A stretch of 19,770 nucleotides of DNA, taken from IMG/VR virus record IMGVR_UViG_2695420763_000003; one strand, written 5' to 3'. A program made the position numbers and the translations under genes. Below, in pieces: positions 3,392-18,561 of the stretch. Each line of letters starts with the position of its first letter. The first letter of the stretch is position 1. Source of the stretch: a virus (taxonomy: Duplodnaviria > Heunggongvirae > Uroviricota > Caudoviricetes). The notes below the pieces were generated by a model. It searched no databases. It had not been told where the DNA came from and saw only the letters and a list, made by a program, of their open reading frames with translations.

Positions 3392-3420
3392 TACAAAAAT
3401 GCCCCGCATCTGCGAGGCAT
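3392..3420 (-). terminator. Intrinsic terminator downstream of Rz/Rz1
   Basis: On the minus strand AUGCCUCGCA-GA-UGCGGGGCAU forms a 10-bp stem (one G-U pair) followed by UUUUUGU. It sits about 40 nt after the Rz stop. Confidence 0.5.
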
Positions 3421-3460
3421 TTTCCTGAAAGTCACTTGTTAAATTTCAGTGAAATTAAAA

Positions 3461-3898
3461 TTATTTTAAGCACTGCGTCCTGATGTATTCCTGCAGGTAG
3501 TTAACCTGCGCGGTTATCTTGTCGATTCCACCTCGGAGACGGTAATAATTGAGTTCAGCATCTGCTGTAAGTCCTGGGCTTTCTCCATCGCCCATGCTGC
3601 TGGCTCCGGTCGTTGACTTTGCACAGGTGGCGGAGACTTGCAGGCGCTTACGCCCAGCAGAAACATCAGCACGGAGACTTTCGATAGTCGCATTAGCATC
3701 AGCAAGCTCCTTTGTGTATCTGGCGTCAAGTTCTGCTACATCACGTTGCCGCTTCTGCATATCAGCGATGATGGATGTGGCTTTATCGCGCTGCTCTTTG
3801 TAGGCGATGGCGTTATCACGGTAATGATTAACAGCCCATGACAGGCAGGCGATAATGCAGATAACCAGAGCGGAGATAATAACGGTTACCCTGCTCAT
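3461..3898 (-). CDS. Rz: i-spanin Rz
   Basis: [39 protein letters not shown]... resembles lambda Rz with its N-terminal TM segment. The ATG at 3898 overlaps the R stop (ATGA). The track ORF starts at an upstream GTG (3910). Confidence 0.85.
3514..3699 (-). CDS. Rz1: o-spanin Rz1 lipoprotein, embedded in the +1 frame of Rz
   Basis: Track ORF 3514..3729 contains [36 protein letters not shown]..., a signal peptide with lipobox-like VSAC and a proline-rich mature region, fully inside Rz as in lambda. Exact start is uncertain. Confidence 0.6.
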
Positions 3899-4392
3899 TG
3901 TTGCCCCCACAAACAGACTTCACGCTCAATCTCGCGGCGAGTCATCAGCCCTTTCCATTGCTTACCGCCAGCGTATGTCCAGCGCCGTAGCTGATCACAT
4001 GCGCCTTTGATATCGCCCTGGTTTATTTTGCGAAGAAGCGTCGATGTTCTGAAATTGCCAGCGCCCACGTTGTAAACGAACGAGTAAAGAGCGCCGCGCG
4101 TTGTTTCCGGTATATCGACGTTGATGTACGGGTTAATTTGTCTGGCGACCGTGGCAAGGTCTTTATTCAGGAGGGCTTTGCATTCTGCTTCGGTATACGT
4201 TTTACCGGGCATGATGTCTTTTCCGGTGTGTCCGTGACATACAGTCCATACGCCAACGATATCTTTGTATGGTATGTAGCTGACACCTTCCAGACCATCG
4301 TTACCACCTGGACCAGTGATGAGCACAGACGCTATGGCAACAGCCCCACTACCAATAGCAGCTGCAACAGCCTTGCGTAATGACGGCGACAT
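3895..4392 (-). CDS. R: SAR endolysin (P21 R-type lysozyme)
   Basis: 165-aa [60 protein letters not shown]... is near-identical to the phage 21 R endolysin as recalled, with its glycine/alanine-rich N-terminal SAR segment. Confidence 0.9.
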
Positions 4393-4598
4393 TATTCACC
4401 TCTCGCAGCCTTACGCTTATCTTCTTTAATCTTGAAATAAAGATTTGTCAGATACGTCAGCAGGCCAAACAGCAGACTTCCCAGCACACCTATTGCCACC
4501 CACTGGGACGGAGAGACTTTGTCCAGCAGCTGCAGTAACCAGTATCCCGTCCCCACCGCTGACGTGGTGTATGACACACCTGTTGTGATTTTTTCCAT
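4392..4598 (-). CDS. S: Pinholin (S21-type holin)
   Basis: 68-aa [68 protein letters not shown] resembles phage 21 pinholin S21. Its stop overlaps the R start. Confidence 0.85.
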
Positions 4599-4640
4599 CT
4601 GATGTATGTCTCCGTCACCGCCGACAGAAAATGAAAGTAA

Positions 4641-4679
4641 AGAAAAACAAAAAAGCCGCCAGTGTCACCCACTGACGGC
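4641..4679 (-). terminator. Intrinsic terminator about 45 nt upstream of the S start, in the late-transcript direction
   Basis: Minus-strand RNA GCCGUCAGUG-GGUGA-CACUGGCGGC forms a 10-bp stem (one G-U pair) followed by UUUUUUGUUUUUC. Confidence 0.5.
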
Positions 4680-4853
4680 CAACGCCGGGAGCCGTGATTA
4701 TGGCATTCAGGCTCTGCTAAAAATGCCAGATAACATTCCGGCCTCCCCTGATTCAGGTTATAAATGACACAATATCTTGACAACATCCGTCACTGTCTGT
4801 CAGAAAATGTACTGCCATATAGAAGCAACATGTGAAGTACATCTATCCTTTTG

Positions 4854-4896
4854 AGCCAGCACCTCTCCACCGAAAGTCAGTGCTGGCTGTTTTTTT
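4854..4896 (+). terminator. Plus-strand intrinsic terminator (unit A)
   Basis: 9-bp stem AGCCAGCAC (4854-4862) / GUGCUGGCU (4880-4888), 17-nt loop, then GTTTTTTT. Confidence 0.5.
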
Positions 4897-5003
4897 CCTT
4901 AATAAGGCATCTGTAACTGAAACAATCCGCATATTGATAATATATTGACAGGCATCATTGCTGTCTGTGAAAAATAAGTCTCTACAAACATATAAGGCCT
5001 TTT

Positions 5004-5045
5004 AGCCAGCGTCTTCTTTTTCAGGTCAGTCGCTGGCTTTTTTTA
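5004..5045 (+). terminator. Plus-strand intrinsic terminator (unit B)
   Basis: 8-bp stem AGCCAGCG (5004-5011) / CGCTGGCT (5031-5038), 19-nt loop, then TTTTTTT. It ends exactly at the stop codon of the convergent esterase gene. Confidence 0.5.
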
Positions 5046-6896
5046 TTATGCTGCCGGTGCATTTATCTCCAGCATCAGACTTTCTATCTCAACGCCATAC
5101 GCTGCATTTTTTGTAACATCCGTCAGCGTCAGCGCATTCAGTCCCAGTGTCAGACTGTCTTTTATAACCTGGAATGCCGGGCCAGCCACTCCATTCAGTT
5201 TCGGAGTAACCGTGGCACTGCCGGCGGTGAACACCAGCTCCAGCGTCTGCCAGTCGTTACCGTAATCGCCGAACTCCCCCAGCTTCGTGTTTCCGGCTTT
5301 CCTGTGATGCATCAGATTCACTCTGCCGTCAGTGGTCTGAGTGAAGTACGACATCAGGAACGGATTACCGGTACCCGTCATCGCCACACCATCAGGAACG
5401 GGAGCATCCGTATACAGATAAATCCCCAGCCCGAACTGATTGTTGGTCAGTGCGCCTGACAGGCGGAACTTACAGGTCAGTCTGCCGCCCTGTGTCAGCA
5501 GGGTAATTGCGTCATCCACCGGATGCGTCAGGGACCAGGTTTTATTGCTCTGCTTGGTGATCTTAAATACACCATCTGACAACTGAATTCCGCCATCCTT
5601 AATGCTCCAGCCCTGCGCAGCAGCCTCTCCGGCTGCCGGCAGCAGGGAGATTGTGCGAACGGACGTATCTGCAGACGGACCCGATGGCGTGTTGCCGCCG
5701 GGCGAGGGTTTGATTTCCGGTGCCTTACCACTGATGAAGGCTGAGGTGCGCCCGGCTGCGTTCAGAATAGCGGTTGCCAGACGATCCGGAATAATGCTCC
5801 TGCGCGCCCATGAACTGAAATGTGTCGGGCGGTTTGATGATACCTGGTTTCCATTCGTTCTCGATGCCGCACCGTAATATCCTGATGCCGGAATATCCGG
5901 ATCTTCTGCCGGCGCGTTAGTGGCGGTATTGACGCCGTTACCGTCTGTCATGAAGGGCACAAAATAAACGCCCTCACTCTCCCTGTTTTTGTACGCCCCG
6001 TAAATGGTGTTGTACTGGGTGCCGTAGGTATTTTTCCAGTAATACGTCGTGTCACCACAAATCCACGGCACATCTGCAGCACTGCCACCATGGCACTGCG
6101 CGTTAAACACGGAGAGGTCAGCACGAAACTGTGTCAGCATGGCTGTAAACAGCGCAGGTTGCTGTGCGTGGGTGGCGGCGCTCATGTCAAACTCTCCCTG
6201 CATCCAGCACACCGCCAGCAACACATTTTTCGGGTTCTTCTGTAATGCAGCTTTGGTGCGCGCAATCAGGTCCTGATATAACGGTTTACCCACACCCCAG
6301 CGCGCCGAATCCTGGCTGGCCCCCGTGTCCGCACTGAATGTCCCCTCCGCGCCCTGGGTAAATGCCGAACCACCACGACAGCATGGTACCAGCAGGATCC
6401 CCGCGTTATTCGGGATATACGGGAGCAGTTTTTTGGCAATATGTAAACCCTGGCCGACACAGCCGTACTGCCCTTTGCTCAGGTCTGCCTTCGGATGATT
6501 CAGCGTACTCATATCCTGCACATCATGCAGGCAGTGGTCGGCCGGAATAATATCGTTATATCTGCAGGCAGCCCCACCCGGCGTCACTGTACTGCGGCGC
6601 GCCAGCTGTTTAATGCGCGGATCCGGAGCATCGTATGAATCCGGCAGCGGAAGCCCTTCACCGTAAGCCATGGCATTGGATTGCCCGGCCAGTACGATGA
6701 CGTAGTACCAATCCGGCTCAGTTGCACCACTGACCACCACATCACCTTCTGCTGTAATCGCCTGCATCAGGGTATAAGGGGTTATGGCCACCGGACTACC
6801 AAACGGCTGCCAGCCCTCTTTCAGTTTGTGTGTCAGCTTTTCCGCAAGGTCTGACGGCGACGCCGCCCTGACAACATCATAATGTTTAAATGTCAT
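5046..6896 (-). CDS. nanS-p: Prophage sialate O-acetylesterase, NanS-p type (DUF1737 N-domain + SGNH/SASA esterase + C-terminal domain)
   Basis: 616-aa ORF. The N-terminus MTFKHYDVVRAASPSDLAEKLTHKLKEGWQPFGSPV is DUF1737-like. VIVLAGQSNAMAYGEG carries the GQSN motif of SGNH/SASA esterases. The C-terminal ~200 aa are Gly/Thr-rich and beta-rich. Position between Q and S matches nanS-p genes of Stx and related prophages. Confidence 0.8.
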   Translation of the reverse strand: MTFKHYDVVRAASPSDLAEKLTHKLKEGWQPFGSPVAITPYTLMQAITAEGDVVVSGATEPDWYYVIVLAGQSNAMAYGEGLPLPDSYDAPDPRIKQLARRSTVTPGGAACRYNDIIPADHCLHDVQDMSTLNHPKADLSKGQYGCVGQGLHIAKKLLPYIPNNAGILLVPCCRGGSAFTQGAEGTFSADTGASQDSARWGVGKPLYQDLIARTKAALQKNPKNVLLAVCWMQGEFDMSAATHAQQPALFTAMLTQFRADLSVFNAQCHGGSAADVPWICGDTTYYWKNTYGTQYNTIYGAYKNRESEGVYFVPFMTDGNGVNTATNAPAEDPDIPASGYYGAASRTNGNQVSSNRPTHFSSWARRSIIPDRLATAILNAAGRTSAFISGKAPEIKPSPGGNTPSGPSADTSVRTISLLPAAGEAAAQGWSIKDGGIQLSDGVFKITKQSNKTWSLTHPVDDAITLLTQGGRLTCKFRLSGALTNNQFGLGIYLYTDAPVPDGVAMTGTGNPFLMSYFTQTTDGRVNLMHHRKAGNTKLGEFGDYGNDWQTLELVFTAGSATVTPKLNGVAGPAFQVIKDSLTLGLNALTLTDVTKNAAYGVEIESLMLEINAPAA

Positions 6897-6984: not shown

Positions 6985-7079
6985 AAGAAATGAAGAAGGC
7001 CACGCAGTTGCGCAGCCTGATAAACCCTGGTTAAAATCCACACGATAACAACACAACAATATCAGTATCTCATGCTATT

Positions 7080-7105
7080 GCCCGAACCCATTCGGGCATT
7101 TTTTA
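7080..7105 (+). terminator. Plus-strand intrinsic terminator
   Basis: GCCCGAA-CCCA-TTCGGGC (7-bp stem) followed by ATTTTTT. Confidence 0.45.
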
Positions 7106-7110
7106 CCCAT

Positions 7111-7141
7111 AAAAAATGCCCCTCCGGAGAGGGGCATTTTT
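7111..7141. terminator. Bidirectional intrinsic terminator
   Basis: AAAAAA-TGCCCCTC-CGGA-GAGGGGCA-TTTTT: 8-bp GC-rich stem with an A-run on one side and a T-run on the other. Confidence 0.55.
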
Positions 7142-7338
7142 GCATGCACATTCTTTTTCTTGCATGGTGCCGGGTGCCTCCCGGTGAATTCAGTATCAGC
7201 ACCTGAATCCGCGATTATCACATATACCTACTTGCTGATTGCCCCTCCGCACAGGGGGATTCACCATGCAGTAGTATTTTTAATAAACAGCAAATAAAAA
7301 AATCAAGCATTATGCAGGCTGTTTCTTTTTATCACCGG

Positions 7339-7470
7339 CTACAGCAATACCACAATGCCGCAGACCAGCACCCCATCCGCCAGCACCGACATGATTCTGC
7401 TGGTGAAATCCACCATCACCACCAGAAACAGCAGGAGTGCAGCCACAGCCAGGCGCAGTTTTACCGTCAC
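7339..7470 (-). CDS. Putative 43-aa hydrophobic small protein, start overlapping the stop of the TerB-like frame
   Basis: GTG at 7470..7468 overlaps TGA at 7469..7467 (GTGA). Translation is VTVKLRLAVAALLLFLVVMVDFTSRIMSVLADGVLVCGIVVLL, a single predicted TM helix. Below the ORF-track length cutoff. Expression is unproven. Confidence 0.3.
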   Translation of the reverse strand: MTVKLRLAVAALLLFLVVMVDFTSRIMSVLADGVLVCGIVVLL

Positions 7471-7960
7471 AGGTGATTCTCCAGACGAAGACCCAGAACA
7501 CCGGCAATCTCTTCCAGCACCTTGCGCTCTTCCGGCTCAATTTCGCCGTCTGCCTCCGCAATGGCCACCGCCACATCCAGCACATCTTCCGCTTCACGCG
7601 TATCGTGTTTCACATCCTCGATCTCACGTAACGCCGCACGACGACCAATTTTAAAGTTCGTATCCAGCTGACCGATAATGGTTGCGCTAATCGCATTAAT
7701 TTCTGACGTAAACGCGGACAGCGCAGGCTGATTACGCAGTACCTGTTCGATCTTCGCTTTCTAGGAAGCCTCACATTCACCATCTGCACAGGCCACCAGG
7801 TAGGCAGCATTAATAACCGCCTGTGCCAGATCGCGTTTCTCAAACTTTCCTTTTTCCGGTTAACGTGACACACCAATAACTCTTGTCGAAAAAGCCAGCA
7901 AGCTGAAAGACCGGTATTCACAACCACCAGCGCGTTTACTGTACTGGCGTGATTTCAGTC
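7467..7960 (-). pseudogene. Degraded TerB-family (tellurite-resistance-like) gene
   Basis: Minus-strand segments translate to ...AGFFDK..., ...PEKGKFEKRDLAQAVINAAYLVACADGECEAS, then in-frame TAG (7761-7763), then KAKIEQVLRNQPALSAFTSEINAISATIIGQLDTNFKIGRRAALREIEDVKHDTREAEDVLDVAVAIAEADGEIEPEERKVLEEIAGVLGLRLENHL*. These segments show TerB-like ADG and EEK motifs. They are broken by an in-frame TAA (7860-7862), the TAG, and at least one frameshift near the N-terminus. No Met-initiated intact ORF remains. Confidence 0.5.
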
Positions 7961-7990
7961 ATAAAAAAACCCGCCTGGCGACGGGTGTAA
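7961..7990 (-). terminator. tR'-like intrinsic terminator of the short pR' leader RNA
   Basis: Minus-strand RNA ACCCG-UCGCCAGG-CGGGU followed by UUUUUUUAU, about 40-60 nt downstream of the predicted pR' start. Confidence 0.6.
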
Positions 7991-8033: not shown

Positions 8034-8061
8034 AATTTACCACAGATTCGGGAAAAATCAA
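8034..8061 (-). promoter_or_regulatory. Late promoter pR' with adjacent qut-like region
   Basis: Minus-strand TTGATT (-35, 8061..8056), 16-nt spacer, TAAATT (-10, 8039..8034). The segment GGTAAATTTGCCCTAACGATGGG closely matches the lambda pR' -10/start region GGTAAATTTGACTCAACGATGGG as recalled. It lies directly downstream of Q. Confidence 0.65.
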
Positions 8062-8066
8062 CAAAG

Positions 8067-8888
8067 CTATCTGGTCACCTTTTTCAGTTGTTGTTCTGCC
8101 CATGCTTCTTCAATATCAAACTGCACCACCAGCGTATCGTAAAAACGTTTAACTGTTTTTTTCCATGTATCAAGAGATATGGCATCGGTTACATTACATA
8201 TGGCATTAAATGCCTCCGTTGAAGGTAATCTTTCATAGCCACGACCACCACAACGCTGGCAGTCTCTGATAACAGGCATACCACGTTTTACCGACTCTTC
8301 ACGATGAATGGCAACACCGCGCCCACGACAATCTTTACAGGCAGTGGATACCTCTCCCTTCCCTCCACACTCCGGACAGGCAACTTTTACCACCTCCCTG
8401 ACTTTTTTCCATTCCTCCCAGTAAGACGGATACACGCCTTTTGTGCACTTTGCCCACACTGGCGGCTTACCATCCGGATACTGGATCTTGTTTGTAAAAA
8501 CCTCGCTTTCAATAAATTTTTTTCCGTGACAACAGGGGCACTGTTTTTTGCTCGCCGCGCTACGGGCATAATCTTCAAACGCATACGAAGCCATAATACG
8601 CATCACTGCCGGTTTTATTTCTGCCGGGAGTTTTCTTAACGCCGCCACGCGATCACACCGACTGAGTGCATATTCTGTCAGCAATTCTGTTGCCCGCTCT
8701 CTGTCATTCATACTAATGCCCATTTTCCCAAGGAACGCAGAAAACCCCATCTCAGCCCAATTCTGTGTCATGCCCTGCGCGGCCATCACATCAGTGATAC
8801 TCAGCGTATCTTTCGACGTTGAGGCCGATGCATCAGTCAGGCCGGGGGATTTTGGGGAGTAGTATTTCGGTAAATCTTCCAGTTTCAT
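8067..8888 (-). CDS. Q: Late-gene antiterminator Q (Qin quuQ-like, 273 aa)
   Basis: Sits between rusA and pR'. The N-terminus MKLEDLPKYYSPKSP... resembles Qin-type Q as recalled. Contains four CxxCxGxG-like motifs (CPCCHGKK, CPECGGKG, CKDCRGRG, CQRCGGRG). Start overlaps the rusA stop (ATGA). Confidence 0.8.
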   Translation of the reverse strand: MKLEDLPKYYSPKSPGLTDASASTSKDTLSITDVMAAQGMTQNWAEMGFSAFLGKMGISMNDRERATELLTEYALSRCDRVAALRKLPAEIKPAVMRIMASYAFEDYARSAASKKQCPCCHGKKFIESEVFTNKIQYPDGKPPVWAKCTKGVYPSYWEEWKKVREVVKVACPECGGKGEVSTACKDCRGRGVAIHREESVKRGMPVIRDCQRCGGRGYERLPSTEAFNAICNVTDAISLDTWKKTVKRFYDTLVVQFDIEEAWAEQQLKKVTR

Positions 8889-9259
8889 TTTTTGACCTGC
8901 CCTTCAAGCATTATGGGGTAAATTTTCACCCCCAGACGTCCACCAGATACTGGCTGAGCACGAACGATATTGATTTCATCAAACTGCTCATCGTCCATTA
9001 GCAACCCCGCATGCGTCAGCGCATCCAGCGGCGCTTTCAGAATATTGTCCAGGTCACGGCGGCGCTTATCCGGTGGCTCGGCAATAATCTTTATCGCCAG
9101 CCTTCCGGACAGGCTTAATTTCAGCCGCTGCTGGCGAACAATAAGCGCCACAGCCCGGCGATAACGCTCACCGGCTTTTGATACAAAATATGTGCTGCCA
9201 CGACGTCGCCAGTAGGTGTTCACCGTCGGCGGGTAAAGCAAAACAAACTCTATACGCAT
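8885..9259 (-). CDS. rusA: Holliday-junction resolvase RusA
   Basis: 124-aa ORF with RusA family motifs (...PPDKRRRDLDNILKAPLDALTHAGLLMDDEQ...). AGAGG RBS upstream. Confidence 0.9.
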   Translation of the reverse strand: MRIEFVLLYPPTVNTYWRRRGSTYFVSKAGERYRRAVALIVRQQRLKLSLSGRLAIKIIAEPPDKRRRDLDNILKAPLDALTHAGLLMDDEQFDEINIVRAQPVSGGRLGVKIYPIMLEGQVKK

Positions 9260-10765: not shown

Positions 10766-10921
10766 TTACTCCTCAGGTTCGTAAGCTGTGAAGACAGCGA
10801 CCTCCGTCTGGCCGGTTCGGATTCGTACCTCGCAGAGGTCTTTCCTCGTTACCAGTGCCGTCACTATGACGGTTAAACAGATGACGATCAGGGCGATTAA
10901 CATCGCCTTTTGCTGCTTCAT
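10766..10921 (-). CDS. hokD: Type I toxin Hok (HokD/RelF-like, 51 aa)
   Basis: MKQQKAMLIALIVICLTVIVTALVTRKDLCEVRIRTGQTEVAVFTAYEPEE with AAGGAG RBS. The track ORF 10766..10978 adds an in-frame 19-codon upstream extension (mok-like). The upstream leader carries a 9-bp inverted repeat (11043-11051 / 11070-11078). Confidence 0.9.
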   Translation of the reverse strand: MKQQKAMLIALIVICLTVIVTALVTRKDLCEVRIRTGQTEVAVFTAYEPEE

Positions 10922-11166
10922 AGCCTGCTTCTCCTTGCCTTTCGGCGCGTAAGAGGCTAACCTACATGTGTCTAGCATGAAATTGGCCTCAGATTAATGT
11001 TAGGCGTCTTGCAGGACGCGTAATGTTAACTGGGGCTTTTCTCTGTCTGCCTTACGGTGGCATGCCCGAGGCAGACAGCCTCAAGCGCCCGCAGCAATTC
11101 TACTTAACTCTCGCTTTACCGCAAACCGTTTTTACCCGATATGGGAATTCCCATATCGTAATGAAT

Positions 11167-17403: not shown

Positions 17404-17450
17404 CAAAAATTTACCCATAGGTATTTACTTTTTAAATACCTATGGGTATC
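17404..17450 (+). promoter_or_regulatory. 15-bp perfect palindrome (operator-like) doubling as a terminator-like hairpin downstream of the repressor gene
   Basis: ACCCATAGGTATTTA (17404-17418) and TAAATACCTATGGGT (17424-17438), followed by ATCCTTCTTTTC. The half-site ACCCATAGGT is related to the ACCCACAGGT repeats at 16881-16913. Confidence 0.5.
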
Positions 17451-18507: not shown

Positions 18508-18561
18508 TTTTCTGGTGACTTTTGGCGGTATCAGTTCTACTCCGTGACTGCTCTGCCGCCC
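18508..18561 (+). ncRNA. dicF: DicF small RNA (ftsZ-targeting sRNA processed from the dicB operon transcript)
   Basis: TTTCTGGTGACTTTTGGCGGTATCAGTTCTACTCCGTGACTGCTCTGCCGCCC followed by TTTTT matches the 53-nt K-12 DicF sequence as I recall it, with about 3 substitutions. It ends in a GGCGG...GCCGCC terminator hairpin. Coordinates are from my own line indexing and were not re-verified to the base. Confidence 0.75.

Follow-up and report, generated by a model that had tools for sequence, protein, structure and literature searches.

Several terminators within the Q-dependent late transcript, and morons that carry terminators of their own, are standard in Stx phages and other lambdoid phages. It is well established that Q-loaded polymerase starting at pR' reads through the late terminators of lambdoid phages, and that the tR' terminators constitutively stop pR' transcripts in lysogens (both restated in PMC7547250). 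The tR' elements of lambda, phage 21 and phage 82, as well as tR'/StxS of the Stx phages, are late-operon intrinsic terminators that are overridden by Q (PMC7547250), and as intrinsic terminators within a late operon they resemble the element described here, a terminator just ahead of the holin gene S (the pre-S terminator). The difference is in position. Whereas tR' lies right after pR' and defines a short leader RNA, the pre-S terminator is found 3.3 kb further on, past the cargo genes and directly before S, and would act mainly on transcripts initiated elsewhere than at pR'. The predicted terminators flanking stx, e.g., upstream of stx2 in phage 933W, are similar in that they isolate cargo inside a Q-dependent late transcript, but they flank the toxin genes while the pre-S terminator flanks the lysis cassette. 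Further away, the insulator terminator of Tn916 (PMC11658703) is reported to be a mobile-element terminator that keeps element genes able to harm the host from being expressed prematurely. This is a different element in a different host, and what is shared is the logic, not the family.

The closest described element is in phage 434, of which the curated GenBank record (OL657226) lists a terminator at 45673-45709 that is identical in sequence to positions 4679-4643 of the DNA studied here. The likeness extends to 100% identity over 161 nt, with the terminator 44 nt before a class II pinholin gene and the same esterase module upstream. On the other hand, phage 434 has a Q82-like Q in place of the 273-aa QuuQ-like Q found here, although the element itself is the same. 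The annotation in phage 434 is a prediction, and the record cites no experiment. The pre-S terminator is a real, ordinary and already known element. In the present locus it probably acts as a Rho-independent terminator that forms part of the conserved 5' leader of a pinholin cassette of the S21 family and keeps S-R-Rz silent until a Q-loaded polymerase passes.

The analysed DNA, a stretch of 19,770 nt referred to as the window, is an EHEC/EPEC-type lambdoid prophage of E. coli with its late genes on the minus strand. Genes were assigned with Pfam for proteins and Rfam for RNAs (Table 1), and the Pfam matches bear out the Q, S, R and Rz assignments of an earlier, sequence-only reading of the window. 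Related records include phage 434, H-19B and many Stx1a phages. In such related phages, Q is annotated as quuQ or antitermination protein Q and the nanS-p gene as yjhS or SASA esterase, and the S homologue of phage 434 is labelled 'holin class II, pinholin'. Following Rz on the late strand are a Rha-like gene and then terminase. The layout is that of a Q-antiterminated late terminator, with Q and the pR'/tR' module upstream and S-R-Rz and terminase downstream, all on the same strand. The pR' hexamers are putative, and the site at 8061-8034 fell below the threshold of the promoter scan. Both tRNA and stx genes are absent from the window.

Table 1. Features of the late region, listed in the direction of late transcription; d is the terminator score described in the text.
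Feature	Position	Strand	Evidence or remark
RusA	8885-9259	- (late strand)	
Q antiterminator, QuuQ-like, 273 aa	8067-8888	-	PF03589, E = 5e-50
Putative pR': TTGATT, 16-nt spacer, TGgTAAATT (extended -10)	8034..8061	-	putative, read from the sequence
tR'-like terminator (CCCGTCGCCAGGCGGG + T7), ~80 nt past Q stop	7963..7985 (stem 7985-7970)	-	d = 32.6
TerB/TciA-like pseudogene	7310-7927	-	two ORFs (105, 95 aa), in-frame stop
STnc100 sRNA (PasD-related)	7105..7295	-	Rfam RF02076, 146 bits
STnc100 terminator	7136-7117	-	d = 46.6
AgvB	7043-7104	+	96.5 bits
Hairpin just 5' of nanS-p, degenerate U tract (TCTTCATTTC)	6997..7018	-	-14.9 kcal/mol
nanS-p-type SASA sialate O-acetylesterase	5046..6896	-	Pfam DUF1737, SASA, DUF6645
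Second plus-strand terminator, PasC-like stem	5005..5047	+	d = 22.5; abuts/overlaps nanS-p stop codon
PasA sRNA gene	4812..4896	+	complete; own terminator, T-run 4890-4896; mapped from PMC8550237 Table S6
Pre-S terminator, stem-loop	4655..4679	-	GCCGTCAGTG / loop GGTGA / CACTGGCGGC, 10 bp
Pre-S terminator, U tract	4643..4654	-	TTTTTTGTTTTT, T6GT5; tail score 5.59, window maximum
S leader, 44 nt	4599..4642	-	ribosome-binding site GGAG
S, class II (S21-type) pinholin, 68 aa	4392..4598	-	PF04971 (phage 21 holin family), E = 1.2e-32
R endolysin (SAR endolysin in phage 434 annotation)	3895..4392	-	PF00959, E = 8e-46
Rz i-spanin	3461..3910	-	PF03245, E = 1e-34
Terminator-like hairpin + T5, 38 nt past Rz stop	3395..3423 (stem 3419-3400)	-	d = 22.2

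Several other features of the window were recorded in passing. The TerB/TciA homologue of a related genome is a RefSeq pseudogene that also has an internal stop. STnc100 and AgvB lie tail to tail just 5' of nanS-p, at the position taken by stx in toxin phages. A sok antitoxin RNA was found at 10916-11090 on the minus strand (115 bits), and at the corresponding position a related genome has an annotated hokD-type toxin. A DicF sRNA is present at 18510-18561 on the plus strand (71.5 bits), which in that related genome lies beside a dicB/kil-type region. In the immunity region, shortly past a plus-strand ORF of 139 aa, positions 17412-17448 hold a perfect 16-bp inverted repeat (TACCCATAGGTATTTA...TAAATACCTATGGGTA) that the scan flagged as terminator-like on both strands.

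The 10 pairs of the pre-S stem include seven G-C pairs and one G-U pair and close a loop of 5 nt; an 11th pair (G-U) is possible using the first U of the tail. The hairpin alone has a folding energy of -18.4 kcal/mol, and with a short flanking helix the minimum free energy is -21.6 kcal/mol (z = -3.2 relative to dinucleotide shuffles). The U tract begins at the very base 3' of the stem and ends 44 nt 5' of the S ATG (4598), which agrees with the strong, U-rich terminator with a 10-bp stem that the sequence-only reading had placed about 45 nt before S. The element has the same orientation as Q, S, R and Rz and is noncoding, located in the gap from the nanS-p stop (5046) to the S start (4598). 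On the opposite strand, no T-run is present 3' of the stem. The pre-S site has the anatomy of an intrinsic terminator, for which a GC-rich stem of about 5-14 bp with a short loop and an adjoining U-rich tract of about 7-9 nt are expected, and it combines this with the proper orientation, a noncoding location and a score above chance. The promoter scan detected no promoter-like site in the 44-nt leader, and as the distance from the tail to S is too short to hold a promoter, S-R-Rz should be reachable only by polymerase that passes the pre-S terminator, in lambdoid phages the Q-loaded polymerase coming from pR'.

At the downstream end of this leader (4599-4610, minus strand), the sequence reads ATA CAT CAG ATG, so that of the two Met codons forming the S71/S68 dual start the upstream one is missing. 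The dual start, ATG TAC CAG ATG, is found in 933W and in most relatives. Without the upstream Met, only the 68-aa holin form of S should be made, and no antiholin form.

Terminator strength was predicted with a d'Aubenton-Carafa-type score d, which is calculated from the hairpin energy per nucleotide and a weighted U tail, applied to every T-run on both strands of the 19.8-kb window. The pre-S terminator ranked first on either strand, with d = 55.7 compared to 46.6 for the runner-up. When the whole window was shuffled 40 times with dinucleotides preserved, the top score was 14.5, and sites with d above zero numbered 8 in the actual sequence against a mean of 0.4 per shuffle. Rfam gave nothing credible for the hairpin, either at gathering thresholds or at E <= 10 over positions 4500-5150.

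We compared the window with 80 IMG/VR viral contigs encoding the S21-type holin family and with phage records. This set contains 42 distinct 150-nt sequences upstream of the holin gene, of which 33 are distinct over the 60 nt around the hairpin. All 33 variants have the hairpin at the same distance from S, with energies from -15 to -24.5 kcal/mol, and most keep a T-run directly 3' of it. The U tract is weak (CCCCTCCTGTTG, GGTCTTTATATTG) in some variants, those of types E and F, which may for this reason terminate poorly. RNAalifold recovered the same helix from an alignment of 22 distinct variants. In the specified helix 91.7% of the cells pair, as compared to 13-60% after displacement of the 3' partners by 1-3 columns. 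Changes on both sides of a pair occur in 6 of the 11 helix pairs, e.g., A-U to G-C at columns 30/48, and the covariation score was 0.374 as compared to 0.265 in shuffles, none of 500 shuffles reaching the observed value. One sequence of the 22-sequence alignment (F_L053 in alignment A1) is a column out of register and was retained, which makes the pairing counts conservative. The pre-S hairpin is under selection as an RNA structure.

The gene that precedes the hairpin differs among these loci. It is nanS-p with PasA in loci of the window type, a 148-aa ORF in 933W and stx1B without an esterase in locus L042, while locus L066 has no late-strand ORF for 1.4 kb. In 933W, the hairpin (L004 ~4430-4465) aligns with that of the window and is unannotated in the phage record. 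Because the hairpin is kept before S whatever gene precedes it, shows covariation and recurs within the S21 family, the terminator belongs to the holin leader. It is a recurrent part of a conserved S leader and was not brought in by the present cargo.

Recurrence within the family is also seen at larger distance. Phage 21, the type phage of the holin family, has a hairpin (-25.5 kcal/mol, z = -4.8) followed by U7 at about 50 nt 5' of S21. Located 3' of two tRNA genes and distinct from the annotated tR' of this phage, it is analogous to the terminator of the window and unrelated to it in sequence. This hairpin (L087 1255-1315, corresponding to OL657228 ~39754-39814) follows tRNA-Thr and is unannotated in an otherwise detailed, curated record. 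Descent of the pre-S terminator from the phage 21 tR', as an 'ancestral tR'', was considered; local alignments matched just the 3' arm and the T-run, which are common to any terminator and do not establish homology.

Among distinct S21-family loci from other Enterobacterales species, 22 of 55 have a strong terminator (d > 20) with a tail that starts 15-130 nt before S. In same-strand background windows such terminators were found in 49 of 1,995 cases, which amounts to an enrichment of about 16-fold before S21-family holins. They lie preferentially near -55 and -120, and the genes 5' of these terminators vary (a DNA methylase, Q, or none). In 26 of the 55 more distant loci a terminator was not detectable in the 130 nt before S, with d at or below zero or no candidate site present, from which it follows that the pre-S design is common and not obligatory. 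Taken together, the score, the shuffles, the covariation, the recurrence in varied contexts and the annotation of phage 434 agree that a strong intrinsic terminator, oriented like the late transcript, separates the lysis genes from the late promoter region, as the sequence-only reading had proposed.

An explanation that shares much of this evidence is that the terminator is the 3' end of a nanS-p moron, imported with the esterase and without any special tie to the lysis genes. It is the first good late-strand terminator past the nanS-p stop, 366 nt downstream, morons are said to bring their own promoter and terminator (PMC8065619), and in the loci examined the type A leader always occurs with the esterase-PasA module. 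However, an alignable hairpin with compensated pairs is present before S in loci without an adjacent esterase (stx1B in L042, L066, and the 933W type with its intervening ORF), and the pre-S21 terminators of phage 21 and many Enterobacterales prophages follow unrelated genes. Furthermore, the breakpoints in 933W and in leader types B, C, E and F, which share the downstream leader, fall upstream of the hairpin. We therefore regard import with the esterase as rather unlikely. The mechanism would be the same as with a terminator of the holin leader, and the two explanations differ just in 'ownership'.

Besides the pre-S terminator, the late strand carries other hairpins with U tracts. A terminator of the pR' leader had been expected at 7961-7990, and here the stem 7985-7970 with its T7 was found, with -12.0 kcal/mol and z = -3.1. 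Between pR' and S there are four late-strand sites with a hairpin and a U tract, i.e., 7985-7970, 7136-7117, 7018-6997 (poor U tract) and 4679-4655. The sequence-only reading was right about the cargo that separates the lysis genes from pR', the distance from tR' to the pre-S site being about 3.3 kb; of the sites that it named, two lie before the lysis genes, compared to the four counted here. At 7117-7136 the hairpin qualifies as a terminator whichever strand is scored. The hairpin at 7018-6997 resembles in sequence a hairpin downstream of stx2B in 933W (L004 1725-1748).

The terminator that had been claimed after Rz is a real hairpin followed by T5, and with an extended stem it reaches -20.2 kcal/mol (z = -4.4). 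Since it follows the lysis genes, it has no bearing on lysis. Polymerase has to traverse it on the way to the Rha-like gene and terminase, and it matters for the terminase and head genes.

The arrangement suggests how the late region would be controlled, where termination in vivo, the origin of the stopped transcripts and read-through by Q-modified polymerase are what we infer from the elements described above. In a lysogen, unmodified polymerase would enter the late strand from cargo promoters between tR' and S, in the STnc100/nanS-p region, or by a second route, leaking through tR'. In the promoter scan, late-strand cargo promoters were weak consensus matches at best. On reaching the pre-S site, the unmodified polymerase would form the GC-rich hairpin, stall on the U tract and be released 44 nt before the S start, and nanS-p is a cargo gene whose transcripts would end there. 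The lethal S-R-Rz genes would in this way be silent in the lysogen while the esterase and the sRNA cargo could be expressed. Upon induction, Q would load on polymerase at pR' and render it terminator-resistant. The Q-modified polymerase would then pass tR', the cargo terminators, the pre-S terminator and finally the post-Rz terminator.

The cargo includes sRNA genes, among them PasA, which the sequence-only reading had overlooked. According to a 2026 preprint (10.64898/2026.05.13.724894), the esterase and the holin-lysozyme operon have the Hfq-dependent sRNAs PasA and PasC between them. Positions 4580-5060 of the window are 100% identical to prophage PP2 of EPEC E2348/69, for which Table S6 of PMC8550237 gives the PasA coordinates and Northern probe and indicates a strand opposite to that of the neighbours ('> < >'). 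The probe is present verbatim on the minus strand of the window. The minor, 236-nt read-through form of PasA ends at the second plus-strand terminator (5005-5047). With PasA on the plus strand, the late transcript is antisense to an active sRNA gene that it crosses on its way to the pre-S terminator. The possibility that the pre-S hairpin is itself the 3' end of PasA or PasC was rejected, since PasA is on the plus strand with its own terminator and the hairpin is on the minus strand, 132 nt beyond the PasA 5' end.

Two further observations concern PasA. A perfect TTGACA is present at 4777-4782 on the plus strand, 17 nt 5' of a poor -10 (TCAGAA) that fits the reported PasA 5' end. In the RIL-seq data (PMC8550237 Tables S3 and S7), 34 PasA chimeras were with the 3' end of the adjacent esterase mRNA, with motif CUGAUGCUGGA; the site of these chimeras, EPEC 743225-743255, corresponds to window positions ~5086-5056. 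This suggests that PasA may act on its own convergent neighbour.

The identity with prophage PP2 allows a comparison with expression in uninduced EPEC E2348/69 (RNA-seq, PMC8550237 Table S2), given as DESeq2 baseMean values that are not length-normalised and for which reads may be ambiguous among similar prophages. In activating and non-activating medium, respectively, baseMean was 102 and 16 for the esterase (E2348C_0688, 1,851 bp) and 3,879 and 230 for pasA. The corresponding values were 3.5 and 1.1 for the holin (E2348C_0689, 207 bp), 3.2 and 0.8 for the endolysin (E2348C_0690, 498 bp), and 1.0 and 0.6 for Rz (E2348C_0691, 438 bp). Per base, read density over S-R-Rz was thus below that of the esterase by about 8-fold in activating and about 4-fold in non-activating medium, at very low counts. 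With S-R-Rz nearly silent and the esterase transcribed, the data agree weakly with termination between the esterase and S. The drop could also be caused by head-on interference from the strongly expressed antisense pasA or by decay of the esterase mRNA. Prophage PP5, which carries the PasC locus, offers no replicate of the expression pattern because an IS4 transposase gene, and not a holin gene, follows its esterase.

The same EPEC RIL-seq data contain a late-strand fragment of the 450-nt esterase-holin gap, at window positions 4817-4799, in 19 chimeras with PasB, which indicates that late-strand RNA exists upstream of the pre-S terminator in the lysogen. This fragment is also a reason to consider that the hairpin and U tract form the Hfq-binding 3' end of a late-strand RNA that sponges or is antisense to PasA or PasB, with termination as a by-product. 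Candidates would be a nanS-p 3' UTR of about 390 nt, fully complementary to PasA, or an RNA of about 105 nt starting from a TTGTCA-15-TATAAC sequence (4783-4757). A strong hairpin with a long U tail is the usual Hfq 3' module, and the region 4641-4752 folds well (-45.7 kcal/mol, z = -3.2). Yet the PasB chimeras are a single recorded interaction, with the fragment some 120 nt 5' of the hairpin, the absence of an Rfam match extends to E <= 10, and the hairpin is conserved in leaders that have no PasA module. In addition, the 5' stem of such an RNA is unsupported, as the variants GGGGAGG, GGGTTGG and GGGGTGG all face an unchanged GGCTCCC, the spacer of the candidate promoter is 15 nt, and no Hfq-bound (EcOnc) sRNA is listed at the homologous sites of Sp4 and Sp12, the Sakai prophages that were searched. 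That a separate late-strand sRNA ends at the hairpin was rejected on account of the unsupported 5' stem, the spacer and the Sakai result, and we consider an Hfq-binding function of the hairpin quite improbable.

There are two ways in which the pre-S terminator might have a wider role, which together we hold to be unlikely. It may form, with tR', a fixed 'gate' that brackets a cargo bay, with cargo such as stx, nanS-p, PasA/PasC, STnc100 and AgvB being expressed in lysogens and never reaching the holin gene. Alternatively, a late-strand RNA that regulates PasA/PasB, fully antisense to PasA and with an Hfq-type 3' end, may link the activity of the cargo sRNAs to late transcription.

A role of the stem-loop in S translation or mRNA stability without termination, either by an sdi-like effect on the holin/antiholin ratio or as a 5' stabiliser, would fit its position in the S leader, its conservation with the holin gene and the dual-start S (ATG TAC CAG ATG) of most relatives. 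However, the stem-loop is located 44-60 nt 5' of the start, clear of the ribosome-binding site, and the conserved T-run after the stem would be needless for a translational element. Moreover, the type A leader has no upstream start codon and yet possesses the strongest version of the hairpin, making a translational role very improbable. Finally, the inverted repeat might have arisen by chance or might act at the DNA level, as a recombination boundary or a palindrome bound by a protein, and the proximity of the hairpin to mosaic junctions between leader types might speak for this. Such a reading is effectively refuted by the covariation and shuffle controls and hardly credible, since no shuffle of the window approaches the pre-S score, the compensatory changes keep RNA pairing including G-U, which is meaningless in duplex DNA, and the T-run on one side only makes the element directional. 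Each of these explanations accounts for less of the evidence than a terminator in the holin leader.

The 122-nt leader that includes the terminator is widespread. Among 5,426 complete E. coli genomes, 699 carry it, with 2,847 occurrences in all and a median of four in the genomes that have it. In RefSeq the pre-S leader terminator is unannotated in E. coli genomes, and with about 2,850 copies its recognition would be useful for annotation. Among the papers searched, none was found on this specific pre-S terminator, nor one in which such a terminator is described as conserved among S21-type cassettes. Its conservation in these cassettes may be unpublished, while being incremental on a textbook mechanism.

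The pre-S terminator leaves the current understanding of late-gene control unchanged. What it would explain is how cargo in the late region can be transcribed during lysogeny without leakage into the lethal holin-endolysin genes, the Stx-phage cargo isolated in this manner being a sialate esterase, several regulatory sRNAs and toxin genes. Recognition of the element would aid the reading of EHEC and EPEC prophage transcriptomes, and it would explain why toxin release and lysis stay tied to Q.
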